Sequence record: NC_054930.1
Strand: one strand, 5' to 3'
Length of the DNA: 64,000 nucleotides
From: Escherichia phage PP01
The notes under the pieces were generated by a model. The model was given only the letters and a program-made list of their open reading frames with translations. It searched no databases and was not told where the DNA came from. The position numbers and the translations under genes are program-made. This document shows positions 6,140 to 40,072 of this stretch, piece by piece (position 1 is the first letter of the stretch; each line of letters starts with the position of its first letter).

Positions 6140-6680
6140 ATAAAAAATCCAAACTAGGAGAATCGTCTACAACACTTTTCTTTTCAGCCCCTGGTGTTCT
6201 ATAGGTTGATTCTTCGTAATGCGTCATTTTATCGTAGATGTCTTGAATAAAAGTTTCATCTACTAACGCAACCATATCGTCGTCACGACTGTCATAGACA
6301 TTGTGAACGAAGTAACTATATTTCTTTGCAACTTCCTTACGTTCTTTTTTAATACGTTGGACGAATGCATTAAAACAAGCTTGAGTTATATATGCATGTG
6401 GGTTTTTATATTTCGTTTCATCAAAATTATGAAGCCCCTTAATAGAAGCTTCTATACCATCTGCAATCATTTCTTGTTTCCAAGACTGGGTGTATCCTGA
6501 AAAGTTGAAACGTTTAGATAAGCCTTCTGCAATAAGCATAATGGCTAATCCGATGGTATCATTCTGACGAACTACTTTATTTGGGTCTTTATTATTTGCT
6601 AATTCTGTTTTCCAATCAATAATAGCTTGTAAAAGCTCTTTATTGTTTACGTAATTATATTTAGGCTTAGTTTCTGACAT
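6123..6680 (-). CDS. 55: Late-transcription sigma factor gp55
   Basis: ORF track 6123..6686; sequence [30 protein letters not shown]... matches T4 gp55 (185 aa when started at MSETK). Confidence 0.92.
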
Positions 6681-6758
6681 TTTCACCTCTTAGCTCAATT
6701 CATAGATCTATTATATCATAATATTTGAAGATCTATCTTAAAGCATAGAGGATATCAG

Positions 6759-7028
6759 TTATCTAAGTAAACAGTATGCTTGGAATACTTTCTCCATCAT
6801 CTTTTTAAATTCATGAATATCTATATAATGACTAGTTAGATCAGCATGATATAAAAAGTCTAAAAACTTTTCATGTGTACTAACATATTCACTTTCATTT
6901 AATTCAGAAACATGGCTTTCCCAATATCCAACACCAGTCTTATTTGGGAAAAATGAAATTTTCATGTATTGGTCAACATAGAAAATGCCATAATTTTCAA
7001 TAGTAATAGAAATATTAATAAATTTCAT
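6759..7028 (-). CDS. Hypothetical protein, 89 aa
   Basis: ORF track. Confidence 0.5.
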   Translation of the reverse strand: MKFINISITIENYGIFYVDQYMKISFFPNKTGVGYWESHVSELNESEYVSTHEKFLDFLYHADLTSHYIDIHEFKKMMEKVFQAYCLLR

Positions 7029-29944: not shown

Positions 29945-30168
29945 ATACTGGCTTCTTTGAGTTTCGTTTTAGCAATAGTTAACTGATCGAGGCTTTCAGC
30001 ATAATTCTTTGCGAATTCACAGTCTTCACAATTATCTAGTGCTTCCCAGAATTCATCATACAAAGCATCAAAGATAAGTCCTAAACGAACTTCAGCATCT
30101 TTGATAGCATTCACTTTACCGATTTTCTCTTCAGTGTGCGGCTTATAACCTTTAATGTCTTCAATCAT
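29902..30168 (-). CDS. Hypothetical protein, 88 aa
   Basis: ORF track. Confidence 0.5.
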
Positions 30169-30382
30169 ATTTTACTTCCTCGCCAGTACATAAATCATAT
30201 TCAACTAAACGAATAGGTTCATGAATGCCATATCCCTGAACAGAAATTTCTGTCGTAGGATAAATTCCACTAATATCACCCATGTTCCATGCTTCATTAA
30301 ATTGCTGTTCGCCTGAATTACTAAACCACTCGGCGAAAGCATTTAGCACATCTTTAGAACCTTCAATAATTATCTTTGCCAT
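30161..30382 (-). CDS. Hypothetical protein, 73 aa
   Basis: ORF track. Confidence 0.5.
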   Translation of the reverse strand: MAKIIIEGSKDVLNAFAEWFSNSGEQQFNEAWNMGDISGIYPTTEISVQGYGIHEPIRLVEYDLCTGEEVKYD

Positions 30383-30756
30383 TACAAGCTCTCAGTAAAG
30401 GTACGAGCGATAACGTCGCGCTGCTGTTCCGGAGTCAGAGAGTTAAAGCGAACTGCATAACCTGATACACGGATGGTCAGCTGCGGATATTTTTCCGGAT
30501 GCTTAACTGCATCTTCCAGAGTTTCACGACGCAGAACGTTAACATTCAGGTGTTGACCACCTTCAATTTTAACCGTAGGCTGTGGTTCAATTTCAATTTC
30601 ACGGGCATGCAAACCGTAGAAAATTTCCGGGTCTACAAAAGAGTCCTCTTTAAAGGTTTTAGAGACAATAATTCGTGCTTGAATACCATCTTCAAAATAA
30701 ATAGTACCTTTATGCGTGCCTTCAAGAATTTGATATGCTTTCATATAACCTCTCAA
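30382..30756 (-). CDS. Autonomous glycyl-radical cofactor (GrcA/YfiD-like; T4 Y06I-type)
   Basis: C-terminal ~60 aa ([60 protein letters not shown]) look essentially identical to E. coli YfiD, including glycyl-radical motif RVSGYAV. Confidence 0.88.
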
Positions 30757-31082
30757 TTAGAAAATAAATTTATCCAAGATTGCTCTTTAATTAAAAATGG
30801 CTCAGAATCATATGCCATTAAACTTTGGGTAATTAGTCCTTTAAAAGGCCCATCAATAAATTCCATGGTAAAATATGGAATTTTATTCATTAATCTTGCA
30901 TTAGGAGCCGTGCACAAAACTCTGCATCCTTTGAATACACCTTTTTGTAATTTGTATTGCTTAGGATAAAATTCGCTCAAGACGTTGTTATTTGCCAAAA
31001 TTTCAAAATGATTCACCAATTTATTTTTAATAGTTTTTGGCGAAAAATAAAGATATTCGAAAAGTTGCGTATCTGTCATCAT
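30753..31082 (-). CDS. Hypothetical protein, ~109 aa (start at MMTDTQ)
   Basis: ORF track 30753..31133; start moved to avoid overlap with upstream ORF. Confidence 0.45.
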
Positions 31083-31618
31083 TGCATTCCAATTACGAAA
31101 AACTGCGGACGAGTAATACCACCAATGCAACATTTACTATTGCAACAGTAATGCACAGTTTCAATATGAATATCGTAAATTTTATCCATATCAGGAGCTT
31201 TAACAGGCTCATCAATTATATACAAAATTCGTGAAAGCGATAAACCTCTGAACTTACTTCCTTTATTGCCAATAAAACTACGCACAGAATCAGTAAATAA
31301 ACGAAAACGTATATCATCATTAGAATAACGCGAAAATTCCTTTTTAATGTTATTTGCAGAAATTTTAGCGTAAGCTGAAGTGTTAGAAAGAACAATAACT
31401 GTTCCACCATCATACAGCCAATTAGCAGCAAAGTTAGTCACAGCAGTTGATTTACCAGATTGACGTCCACCATCTAGTCGAAGTGTGCAATACTGTTTGA
31501 GTAAGTCTTCAAATGGTGGGATATAATCGTTTTTACAAATTTCTTCTACTCTAGCATCAGAATGGTGTGTAAAAGCATTCATCAGGGATAGATAAGGACC
31601 AGTTAAAAATGTTCTCAT
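31079..31618 (-). CDS. P-loop NTPase-like protein, 179 aa
   Basis: Walker A-like GGRQSGKST; sits at the locus where I expect denV in T4. Confidence 0.55.
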   Translation of the reverse strand: MRTFLTGPYLSLMNAFTHHSDARVEEICKNDYIPPFEDLLKQYCTLRLDGGRQSGKSTAVTNFAANWLYDGGTVIVLSNTSAYAKISANNIKKEFSRYSNDDIRFRLFTDSVRSFIGNKGSKFRGLSLSRILYIIDEPVKAPDMDKIYDIHIETVHYCCNSKCCIGGITRPQFFVIGMQ

Positions 31619-31770
31619 TTCTTCTCTCTAAATTTGGGCCATTCCGTGGCGCATGAATTGTCCATTTCTGTATTTACCCATTACCGCACTTGGGCTCGAC
31701 CTTATTACAGGTTGGCGGGAATCCCTCACAGAACCATGAGGTCCAGCTTGTTCCCATATTTCTTATTTGC

Positions 31771-32244
31771 TTATTTGAACGATTTAACGTACTGAATAGA
31801 ACCTTTACTATTCACAAAGGCAATTTTACCATTTTTGTTATACATGGTAGCAGTACGTTGATAGCCATAAGTTTGTTTACCAGATTGATAACCAACTAAT
31901 GCAAAATTATCTTCACCCATTTTATTCTGTTTAGCGCGAATGCGTTCATGACCATGTGCCATAAGAACCTTAGCATCACCAGTTGCAATGGATCGACGAG
32001 TTTTTTCATCTTCAACTGTATTAACAAAGTCGTCAAATGAATCAAATTTAGCATGAGATTTATTATACAGTTTTCCATCTACTGCATAATTATATCCTTG
32101 TACATCCATCTCAACTTCTGTACCATCATCTAATACAGCAGTAATTTTCTGTCCTTTTTTAAATTTCAAAAGATCAGTAAAAGATTCAGCAATAATTTGA
32201 GAATTAATAGCTGCTTCAGTAATAAATTCTTGATATGTTTTCAT
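31771..32244 (-). CDS. Internal (head-packaged) protein with capsid-targeting leader, 157 aa
   Basis: N-terminal MKTYQEFITEA matches the T4 IPII/IPIII capsid-targeting sequence; located beside e like the T4 ipII/ipIII genes. Confidence 0.7.
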   Translation of the reverse strand: MKTYQEFITEAAINSQIIAESFTDLLKFKKGQKITAVLDDGTEVEMDVQGYNYAVDGKLYNKSHAKFDSFDDFVNTVEDEKTRRSIATGDAKVLMAHGHERIRAKQNKMGEDNFALVGYQSGKQTYGYQRTATMYNKNGKIAFVNSKGSIQYVKSFK

Positions 32245-32260
32245 GTGTATCCTTTAATTT

Positions 32261-32578
32261 TTATTCTTTAGGGAAGTTTTTAGAATATGCATCATAAAGC
32301 TTATTTCCAATACGGCGGAAAACTCTAGCCGCAAAACGATTTTCTGGGTTTTTAATCATGATTTGCATCATATAAGTACCCGCGTCAGAAAGAGCTTCTT
32401 CATAGTACCCGTTAATTTCTTTAAGAGTCCTACGTTTACCGCCAGGACCATCAACAGTGATTTTCCATTTACCTGTAGAAGTGCGACTTGGCGGCTCAAC
32501 TTGTTCAATCCAGATATAACCGCCTTCTACACGTTGTCCTGCAGCAGATTCTGCAATAAATTCTTGATAGGTTTTCAT
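32261..32578 (-). CDS. Internal (head-packaged) protein with capsid-targeting leader, 105 aa
   Basis: N-terminal MKTYQEFIAESA; early promoter upstream. Confidence 0.7.
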   Translation of the reverse strand: MKTYQEFIAESAAGQRVEGGYIWIEQVEPPSRTSTGKWKITVDGPGGKRRTLKEINGYYEEALSDAGTYMMQIMIKNPENRFAARVFRRIGNKLYDAYSKNFPKE

Positions 32579-32629
32579 GTGTTTCCTTTAAATATTTTAA
32601 TTAGTAATTTGTCTCTTCAAGCAACTGTG

Positions 32630-33635
<1,006 letters not shown>

Positions 33636-33654
<19 letters not shown>

Positions 33655-33998
33655 TCACTCACAAACTCTTTCATTGATTCATTTTCAATATAAGACATGT
33701 AGCTATTATATTCTTTTAATTGTATTTTGTAATCCTTTTTTCTTTGCCAATTTATTTTAAAATTATCATAATGAAAATATAACATGGTACCAAAGAATGA
33801 AAATAATGAAATAATTTTAGTATAGTGAAGTTCACTCCAAACTTCTGTTATATTTACTGTGCCGTCGATGTTTAAAATAAGACAGTCAATTAACAATCCA
33901 AAAAGACTACCCGCAAGAGCTGCAGCCAACGCCACAGCAAAAATTAAAAATGACTCAGGAAGCGAATATTTGGCTTTATTTAGTTTTGGCTTTTGCAT
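33636..33998 (-). CDS. Small two-helix membrane protein, 120 aa (membrane paralog 1)
   Basis: Hydrophobic helices FLIFAVALAAALAGSLFGLLIDCLIL and IISLFSFFGTMLYF; basic tail WQRKKDYKIQLKEY...MKEFVSD. Confidence 0.55.
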
Positions 33999-36536: not shown

Positions 36537-37010
36537 TTATTTGATTTGTTTAGCAGACCAAATGCGGTCTTTAATAATTTTTTGGATGTCTTCAACATAC
36601 TCTAGGTCATGAGCATGTGGATTATCTTTGAAACTATAAGCACGAGCTAGCTTTTGGCCTTCAGTTTTGATTACTAAAAGCTCTTTAAGGATAGCTTCAT
36701 ATCTGGAGATAATTCCTTTAACAATATTTTTTTCTTGTGCAGCTTTAGGATCTGCTTTAGGAGCAGGTTTACCCGAAGCCTTTGCAAAAGCAGCGCCAGT
36801 AGCAACTAGACTTTTCCAGGCCATACTAACCGCATTTCCTGTAAATCCTTCTGCTTTCATGCCGCGAGCAAATTGGAATCGCGATTCGTCAGAAGCATCT
36901 TTATAAGAATATTTACCCGCTGCAATGGCTGCTTTTGCGACAGCTTGAATTTCGGTGCTAGATGCTTCATTTAACACCGCTTCATTTAAAAATTGAGTAT
37001 ATGATTTCAT
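36537..37010 (-). CDS. Putative internal-protein-like gene with capsid-targeting-like leader, ~158 aa
   Basis: ORF track gives 36537..37187; start moved to internal MKSYTQFLNEA (resembles MKTYQEFIAEA), which has an AGGAAA ribosome-binding site and a TATAAATA late promoter ~40 nt upstream; Ala/Lys-rich basic protein. Confidence 0.55.
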   Translation of the reverse strand: MKSYTQFLNEAVLNEASSTEIQAVAKAAIAAGKYSYKDASDESRFQFARGMKAEGFTGNAVSMAWKSLVATGAAFAKASGKPAPKADPKAAQEKNIVKGIISRYEAILKELLVIKTEGQKLARAYSFKDNPHAHDLEYVEDIQKIIKDRIWSAKQIK

Positions 37011-37048: not shown

Positions 37049-37056
37049 TATTTATA
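37049..37056 (-). promoter_or_regulatory. Late promoter (TATAAATA)
   Basis: Plus strand tatttata, reverse complement of TATAAATA, located between the terminator hairpin and the 158-aa gene's start. Confidence 0.6.
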
Positions 37057-37482: not shown

Positions 37483-38148
37483 TTAAAATTTCATTTTTCG
37501 ACCTTTAAACCATCCTTCTGGAATTGGGTCAGTTTTCTTAATACGTTTAGAAACTTTTTCATCCAATGAATGAATCCACATCATGCCAAATTGGGAATTC
37601 TTTTCACCTTGTTGGTGTTTATTTCTGGCGTGAGATTCTTTCATTTTATTAATAGTTTCAGGAGTATGGGTCTTACCCAAGAAAGATTTAGTATTTAAAA
37701 ATTTCTCTCTATACTTAGGATTATCCCAAAGCTGTTTAAACCTTTCTGAACCCATTTTACGATATTTTTCTTTAAGGTCTGGGTCGTTCTCAAATCTGGT
37801 TTTAAAAGCGGCAGCTCCTTTTAAGGAAGCTTCTTTCTTTTTATCCAAATATTCTTTAGTGTTTAAATGGTCCCAACCACCTTCACCACCTAATTTCAGA
37901 TTATAAACATCAGGGCGCTTTAAAAACTCTTCAGTCACAATATTCTTTTCTGACTCAAACATAGAGGTTTTATCGTCAAAGAACTCTAATATTTCTTTAG
38001 AAAAATTTTCTATACCATATTTATCTTGGGCTCTTTTTAATAATTTACCAGAACCCATATATCCATCATCTAAATTTTCGGTAGAATGAGCGCCTATATA
38101 GATTTTATTATTAATTTTATTTGTTATTTTATAAATGTAATGGAACAT
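37483..38148 (-). CDS. segB: GIY-YIG homing endonuclease SegB
   Basis: 221 aa; GIY-YIG motif HYIYKITNKINNKIYIGAHST...YMGSG; embedded in the tRNA cluster as in T4. Confidence 0.85.
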   Translation of the reverse strand: MFHYIYKITNKINNKIYIGAHSTENLDDGYMGSGKLLKRAQDKYGIENFSKEILEFFDDKTSMFESEKNIVTEEFLKRPDVYNLKLGGEGGWDHLNTKEYLDKKKEASLKGAAAFKTRFENDPDLKEKYRKMGSERFKQLWDNPKYREKFLNTKSFLGKTHTPETINKMKESHARNKHQQGEKNSQFGMMWIHSLDEKVSKRIKKTDPIPEGWFKGRKMKF

Positions 38149-39769: not shown

Positions 39770-39830
39770 GTAATAGTATCACTACTAAAACCCCGTGTAA
39801 ACAACTTTGTGAAATTATTTTAAATCTTCT
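39770..39830 (-). promoter_or_regulatory. T4-type early promoter (repeat copy A, 3' of the ipI-locus gene)
   Basis: Plus strand ggtaatagtatcacta...gtgtaaacaactttgtgaaattattttaaatc; near-identical to the copy at ~40100-40160. Confidence 0.6.
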
Positions 39831-40072
39831 AATCGTTTCTTCATCTTAGAACCATTTTTAGCGATTTCTCCTGCGTCAGAGCATAATGCTAAAAGTGCTT
39901 TAACTTTAGTTTGGTCTCCTTTAAAAGACGAAGGATCGACTGCAGCAGCAAGTTCTTTAATACGAGAGAAAAGACGCTCAGCTTCAGCTAAAGCCATTCC
40001 AAGCTTTACTTCCATACCATGAGAAGATTCAGTGATAATAGTTTCTGTAGCAAACTCTTTATAAGTTTTCAT
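39815..40072 (-). CDS. Internal-protein-like gene with capsid-targeting leader at the ipI locus, 85 aa
   Basis: N-terminal MKTYKEFATETIITE leader; located between the tRNA region and 57B, where T4 carries ipI; sequence differs from what I recall of T4 IPI. Confidence 0.65.
   Translation of the reverse strand: MKTYKEFATETIITESSHGMEVKLGMALAEAERLFSRIKELAAAVDPSSFKGDQTKVKALLALCSDAGEIAKNGSKMKKRLEDLK

Follow-up and report, generated by a model that had tools for sequence, protein, structure and literature searches.

The two genes that follow the lysozyme gene e in the window (the whole stretch of 64,000 nucleotides analysed here) encode a member of the Ip10 family and the internal protein Ip4. With good confidence, both can be regarded as head proteins that are packaged, cleaved by gp21 and injected, likely as inhibitors of the GmrSD type, and that are carried on a swappable cassette. 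The genes, their leader, the variability of the locus and the anti-defence hypothesis are already known from the literature and from public annotation, and the window contributes one more instance of a known allele combination. Exactly the same gene pair is found in the Shigella phages Sf25 and SH7 and in about 55 further records. The best whole-window match among the collection records is ~97%, and the window is a mosaic Tequatrovirus (a T2/T4-like phage).

The gene pair and its expression signals

The two genes, their upstream neighbour and the DNA between them are located as follows:

33175..33195, minus strand: two canonical T4 late promoters TATAAATA, just upstream of e
32667..33161, minus strand: gene e (T4-type lysozyme), the upstream neighbour (open reading frame, T4 annotation)
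32579..32666, minus strand: DNA separating e from the first Ip gene; its T4 equivalent, the e-ipIII intergenic region, is about 95% identical
32261..32578, minus strand: gene of the Ip10-family protein (open reading frame of 105 residues; product starts MKTYQEFIAESAAG)
32245..32260, minus strand: 16-nt spacer between the Ip genes, with the Ip4 ribosome-binding site (AAAGGATACAC)
31771..32244, minus strand: gene of Ip4 (open reading frame of 157 residues; product starts MKTYQEFITEAAIN)

An earlier note on this DNA had described two reading frames that open with the leaders MKTYQEFIAE (105 residues) and MKTYQEFITE (157 residues), and both frames and both leaders lie where it had placed them. Its remark that the sizes do not match those of the T4 proteins is also correct, as the T4 annotation gives 303 nt for ipII (100 residues) and 582 nt for ipIII (193 residues). 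The pair had, however, been placed upstream of e. All these genes are on the minus strand and the Ip genes hold lower plus-strand coordinates than e (32667..33161), so that they are downstream of it in the direction of transcription.

The motif AAAGGA(A/T)ACAC precedes the ATG of both Ip genes. The window, Sf25 and T2 differ at six to nine nucleotides of the Ip4 gene, and all of these differences are synonymous (none is non-synonymous), compared to one to three non-synonymous changes among the 21–22 nucleotide differences of gene e in the same three phages. The Ip10-like gene shares 86% of its DNA and 96% of its protein sequence with the RB69 homologue. These substitution patterns indicate that both genes are under purifying selection. 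Given the ribosome-binding sites, the exclusively synonymous changes in Ip4 and the hundreds of phage homologues of each protein, both reading frames are genuine genes rather than chance ones.

The DNA that separates e from the first Ip gene holds an element resembling a T4 early promoter (GTTTAC...TAGTAT), which overlaps an 8-bp stem-loop (AATTGTGA/TCACAGTT), as well as the ribosome-binding site; the fold has an energy of -16.9 kcal/mol (z -1.9). The spacer between the two genes lacks a separate promoter element, so Ip4 probably shares a transcript with the 105-residue gene. No canonical late promoter is found directly upstream of the Ip genes, and a 7/8 match to the late promoter (TATAAAAA) lies within the 3' end of e. 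No terminator-like site is found on the minus strand from e to the end of Ip4, and late expression by read-through from the e promoters over both Ip genes is plausible.

Capsid-targeting leaders and predicted processing

The leaders are encoded as follows:

32549..32578, minus strand: leader MKTYQEFIAE of the 105-residue protein, with a predicted gp21 cut after I-A-E10
32215..32244, minus strand: leader MKTYQEFITE of Ip4 (open reading frame and alignment with T4 leaders)

T4 IPII and IPIII share the leader of the 105-residue protein residue for residue, and the Ip4 leader is one residue off. In IPIII, the first 10 residues are sufficient for targeting to the T4 prohead core; among them, positions 4 and 7 are important for targeting, and positions 8 and 10 for cleavage by gp21, the prohead protease (PMC9026906). 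Tyr4, Phe7, Ile8, and Glu10 are intact in both proteins of the window, which thereby show the pattern of the capsid-targeting sequence (CTS), M-K-T-Y/F-x-E-F..., with Tyr/Phe4, Phe7, Ile/Leu8, and Glu10. The gp21 motif (L/I)-x-E occurs as IAE (residues 8–10) in the 105-residue protein, and as ITE (8–10) and IAE (18–20) in Ip4. Glu20 of Ip4 is invariant in 13 homologues, where the P3 residue is aliphatic, and lines up in a profile alignment with Glu19, the cleavage site of IPI. A propeptide of 20 residues is therefore possible for Ip4.

Cleavage after Glu10 is predicted to leave a mature product of 95 residues (10.8 kDa, pI 9.6) in the case of the 105-residue protein, and of 147 residues (16.5 kDa, pI 9.1) in the case of Ip4, or of 137 residues if Ip4 is cut after Glu20. 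Over both cuts, mature Ip4 would range from 15.5 to 16.5 kDa, with a pI of 9.1–9.3. T4 IPII (pI 9.56) and IPIII (pI 9.65) are as basic as these products. In leader, cleavage motif, locus, size and basic pI, both proteins thus read as CTS-bearing internal head proteins. A search of the accessible literature retrieves no report on virion proteomics or injection of these two proteins.

The following mechanism is proposed. The 10-residue N-terminal capsid-targeting sequence would attach each protein to the prohead's scaffolding core, and gp21 would then cut after Glu10 (I-x-E), with a further cut in Ip4 perhaps following the invariant Glu20. The mature proteins, small and basic, would remain in the head with the DNA and would enter the next host by injection. 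In T4, roughly 300 copies of each mature internal protein are ejected together with the DNA (PMC9026906).

Family assignment of both proteins

The 157-residue protein matches Pfam family PF24183 (DUF7412) over residues 1–157 (E 5.7e-96) and PHROG 3155, described as an internal virion protein (E 6e-102), and the records of ime09 and Shfl2 name it Ip4. A tblastn search finds homologues in 469 phage records, of which 290 reach an identity of at least 99%, and more divergent ones (61–72% identity) occur in T4-like phages of Klebsiella, Salmonella, and Serratia. When 1.8 billion representatives are searched exhaustively with a profile, Ip4 has only seven matches. These similarities identify the protein as Ip4, a member of a family that already bears this name.

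The 105-residue protein matches PHROG 3966 (E 2.7e-34), and is 71% identical to the protein called 'Ip10' in Shigella phage SP18 over 100% of the query, 72% identical to 'ip10' of VR7, and 96% identical to ORF124c of RB69. In VR7, the gene is annotated as 'similar to RB69 ORF124c and bacteriophage Pol Ip10'. The protein is found in 188 phage records and is, by full-length similarity, a member of the Ip10 family. A weak match to CsgH (E 0.09–0.15) was rejected as chance. A recent inter-genus transfer of the gene from Mosigvirus was considered as well; its nucleotide identity to RB69 (86%) is little higher than in the flanks (72–82%), so no such transfer is claimed.

Public annotation of the Ip locus between e and vs.8 is unreliable. 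In Sf25 and SH7, Ip4 and the Ip10-like protein are called IpIII/IpII or IpII/IpIII from size alone, and in many records the 105-residue protein is either 'hypothetical' or mislabelled IpII or IpIII by its size. The T2 record AP018813 mislabels Ip4 (6430–6903) as 'valyl tRNA synthetase modifier', and many of its small neighbours in that record also hold wrong names, such as 'tail sheath monomer' and 'major capsid protein'.

The view of the earlier note that these proteins are not the orthologues of IPII and IPIII is borne out by the alignment that it had called for, in which only residues 1–13 or 1–14 are shared with the T4 proteins. Homology of the cargo to T4 IPI, IPII, or IPIII is accordingly rejected, as the leader alone aligns. 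An apparent relation between Ip4 and IPI (BLASTP E 3e-4 with leaders) vanishes when the leaders are removed (E 14; hhalign probability 0.5%). Identity between the 105-residue protein and Ip4 is likewise confined to the first 10–13 residues, and, the leader aside, neither protein resembles Ip1, Ip2, or Ip3 in sequence or fold. Ip1, Ip2, and Ip3 are themselves mutually non-homologous, and the lack of homology to them is thus compatible with inhibition of GmrSD.

A hypervariable cassette locus

T4-like phages hold two hypervariable Ip loci, one between e and denV/vs.8 and the other next to 57B, and the gene pair is found in the first of them, between e and vs.8. The elements that delimit the exchanged DNA are:

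31760..32538, minus strand: segment without T4 counterpart (blastn boundaries)
32543..32596, minus strand: copy 1 of a 54-nt direct repeat (ribosome-binding site and leader codons), where the cassette that T2 lacks has its left junction
32209..32262, minus strand: copy 2 of the repeat (ribosome-binding site and Ip4 leader codons)
31079-31729, minus strand: vs.8, 94% identical to T4 vs.8

The gene order is e, ipIII, ipII, denV, vs.8 in T4, and e, Ip10-like, Ip4, vs.8 in the window. Homology between both loci (blastn) is limited to 33665..32539 and 31759..30001. The first block covers e, continues through the DNA between e and ipIII and reaches 13 codons into the first Ip gene, where it ends at 32539, and homology resumes at 31759, the position of the T4 denV stop codon. 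From this gap, 779 nt in the window replace 1433 nt in T4, a segment that comprises the IPIII cargo, ipII, and denV. No tblastn match to denV, encoding the endonuclease V of pyrimidine-dimer repair, is found within the whole 64-kb window.

T2 corresponds to the window minus exactly one unit (32542..32258), and holds Ip4 alone at this locus. The two copies of the 54-nt repeat are 85% identical, and the junctions between T2 and the window fall inside them (repeat search and blastn). T6 has no Ip gene between e and vs.8, and RB69 and VR7 hold different Ip combinations there. The pair represents, on the comparison of these loci, one allele at a locus known to be hypervariable, where cassettes are exchanged, gained and lost through recombination in the repeated ribosome-binding site and leader, and in the flanking promoter/stem-loop elements. 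Arbiol et al. note more than 30 Ip variants and, for the promoter/stem-loop elements at the two variable loci, give credit to Repoila et al. 1994 (PMC2839356). That the cargo varies while the leader stays constant has been on record since the latter work, as it is cited in PMC3012670, PMC2839356, and PMC12373910.

Relative to T4, the vs.8 gene downstream of the cassette has lost 9 nt and is interrupted by an in-frame TAG behind codon 33. What remains is only a product of 179 residues that starts at an internal ATG (31618), in agreement with the Sf25 annotation. The 150 nt downstream of Ip4 (31619-31770), a GC-richer stretch, were considered as an RNA element and have no Rfam match; they are the disrupted 5' part of vs.8.

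Other Ip-like genes and neighbours in the window

Elsewhere in the window, the following features resemble internal protein genes or differ from T4:

36537-37010, minus strand: open reading frame of 157 residues, product starting MKSYTQFLNEAVLNEA, with a CTS-like leader and a late promoter
37049-37056, minus strand: canonical late promoter TATAAATA of this frame, 39 nt upstream of it
37483-38148, minus strand: open reading frame of 221 residues of the GIY-YIG type, at the position of T4 segB
39815-40072, minus strand: open reading frame of 85 residues, product starting MKTYKEFATETIITE, PHROG 3499 'internal head protein', at the ipI locus

The frame at 37010..36537 is inserted between rnaC and e.8 relative to T4, and its promoter comes directly after a GC hairpin and a T-run. 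The leader of its product holds Tyr4, Phe7, Leu8, and Glu10, together with two L-N-E sites, and is retained in homologues (MKSYAEFLTE in Mosigvirus, MKFKEFLIE in a Klebsiella phage). The protein belongs to PHROG 2280, of unknown function, and occurs in about 510 phage records, being 'hypothetical protein' or unannotated among the matches listed. By these features, it is a candidate for an unrecognised internal protein at a third Ip locus.

The 85-residue frame (40072..39815) adjoins 57B and is near-identical to the T2 frame of 84 residues beside Ip7; T4 ipI is absent from the ipI locus of the window. The GIY-YIG-type frame lies between tRNA-Arg and the tRNA-Met/Thr/Ser/Pro/Gly/Leu/Gln cluster and, compared to T4, the tRNA set of the window (eight genes) contains Met and lacks Ile.

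Possible functions and their alternatives

T4 Ip1, Ip2, and Ip3 each block a distinct GmrSD, and Silas et al. 2025 (PMC12373910) proposed that every gene of the two Ip loci targets variants of this family. The suggestion of the earlier note that the pair may be an anti-restriction candidate agrees with this published hypothesis. From their locus position and their architecture, the proteins of the window most likely share the kind of job of Ip1–3. Each would act stoichiometrically rather than as an enzyme, and would block one particular subtype of the host type IV (GmrSD-like) restriction endonucleases that attack glucosyl-hmC DNA, the inhibition being proposed by analogy with T4 Ip1, Ip2, and Ip3. 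IPIII is active in the cytoplasm without its leader (PMC9391042).

An enzymatic role had been suggested for Ip4 on the basis of a segment described as rich in histidine and possibly catalytic. This segment, VLMAHGHERIRAKQN, comprises residues 93–107, and the description is overstated, as only two of its 15 residues are His. It is highly improbable that Ip4 is an injected enzyme using the histidines of this AHGH segment. His64 and His99 are invariant in the 13 closer homologues, which speaks for this reading, but His97 is replaced by Tyr or Phe in some of these close relatives. Moreover, all three histidines are replaced in the three distant homologues retrieved by the exhaustive profile search (E 1e-17 to 1e-22), which hold leaders such as MNFEQFLNES: His64 by Asp or Ala, His97 by Lys, Leu, or Tyr, and His99 by Tyr, Phe, or a gap. 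The residues invariant throughout the family are Gly, Asn, Lys, Ala, Tyr, and Thr, which do not provide an acid/base set. No enzyme family is matched in Pfam, NCBIfam, or the PDB by sequence or fold; the NCBIfam search with Ip4 returned nothing meaningful, and profile searches of the PDB gave no significant match. The AlphaFold2 models are poor, with a pLDDT of 50 for Ip4 and of 62 for the 105-residue protein, where residues 20–78 form a moderately confident core of three strands and a helix. Foldseek found nothing below E 0.06 in the PDB for either model, and only their own homologues in BFVD, namely K3 Ip4 for the 157-residue protein and a Cronobacter phage protein of 55% identity for the 105-residue one. 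With models of this quality, fold-based inference is not possible for either protein.

There are two further alternatives. The proteins might be mainly structural or morphogenetic, acting in the prohead core or as counterions of the DNA, as stand-ins for T4 IPIII and with no anti-defence target. T4 phages with a mutant IPIII are impaired in head assembly and have smaller bursts (PMC9026906), loss of IPIII halving the rate of head assembly, and both proteins of the window are basic like IPII and IPIII. Ip4 is also strikingly conserved and is the sole Ip at the e-vs.8 locus of T2, and ip4–10 showed no reproducible inhibition of the tested GmrSD variants (PMC12373910, Supplementary Fig. 9), although the alleles used may differ from those of the window. 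However, a structural requirement is not evident, given that T6 lacks an Ip gene at this locus and T4 mutants devoid of internal proteins are viable (PMC9026906). Furthermore, IPIII itself proved to be a GmrSD inhibitor, and the presence or absence of the 105-residue cassette among close relatives fits an accessory role, which makes a mainly structural function quite improbable.

Somewhat less improbable, but still unlikely, is that Ip4 and/or the Ip10-like protein neutralise a first-response defence outside the tested GmrSD classes, either a new nuclease subtype or another system, such as a different modification-dependent nuclease or a sensor of incoming DNA. The negative screens of common Enterobacterial GmrSD clusters (PMC12373910) and the occurrence of Ip4 homologues in T4-like phages of three further host genera point in this direction, and the cross-genus conservation of Ip4 would then reflect a broadly distributed, conserved target. 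Nevertheless, all three characterised Ips target GmrSD enzymes, and the diversity of these enzymes far exceeds the 15 groups tested (PMC12373910). Inhibition of a GmrSD-type enzyme by the injected proteins thus remains the likely reading, even though the conservation of Ip4 (290 records at 99% identity or more, and 61–72% across genera) is less typical of an inhibitor in a fast arms race. By acting at the front line against restriction, injected Ip proteins influence which hosts T4-like therapeutic phages can infect, and Ip4 and Ip10 are reasonable candidates for screens of defence inhibitors.

Comparison with known internal proteins

The closest parallel of the gene pair in T4 is that of IPIII and IPII, the GmrSD inhibitors Ip3 and Ip2, which occupy the same genomic slot, behind upstream regulatory DNA that is about 95% identical, and fall in a similar size range. 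Unlike the leader, the mature cargo of these proteins has no detectable similarity to that of the proteins of the window, and the size order of the two T4 genes is the opposite. T4 IPI/IPI* (Pfam PF11634), which inhibits the GmrSD of E. coli CT596, holds a leader related to those of the window, but is encoded at the other Ip locus, unlike Ip4.

By contrast with T4, known counterparts of full length exist for both proteins, and the implication of the earlier note that their cargo was an unrecognised variant does not hold. The 157-residue protein is the T2 protein, identical at 157/157 residues and encoded at the same locus, and is 99% identical to Ip4 of K3 (UniProt Q38388). In T2 and K3, the length, the leader, and the site downstream of e are all as in the window, with no difference noted at the protein level. 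The 105-residue protein belongs with the Ip10 proteins of Pol, SP18, VR7, and RB69 (ORF124c), with which it shares homology over the full length, the leader and a place in the variable locus flanked by e and vs.8, while differing from the named Ip10 proteins at about 28% of its residues.
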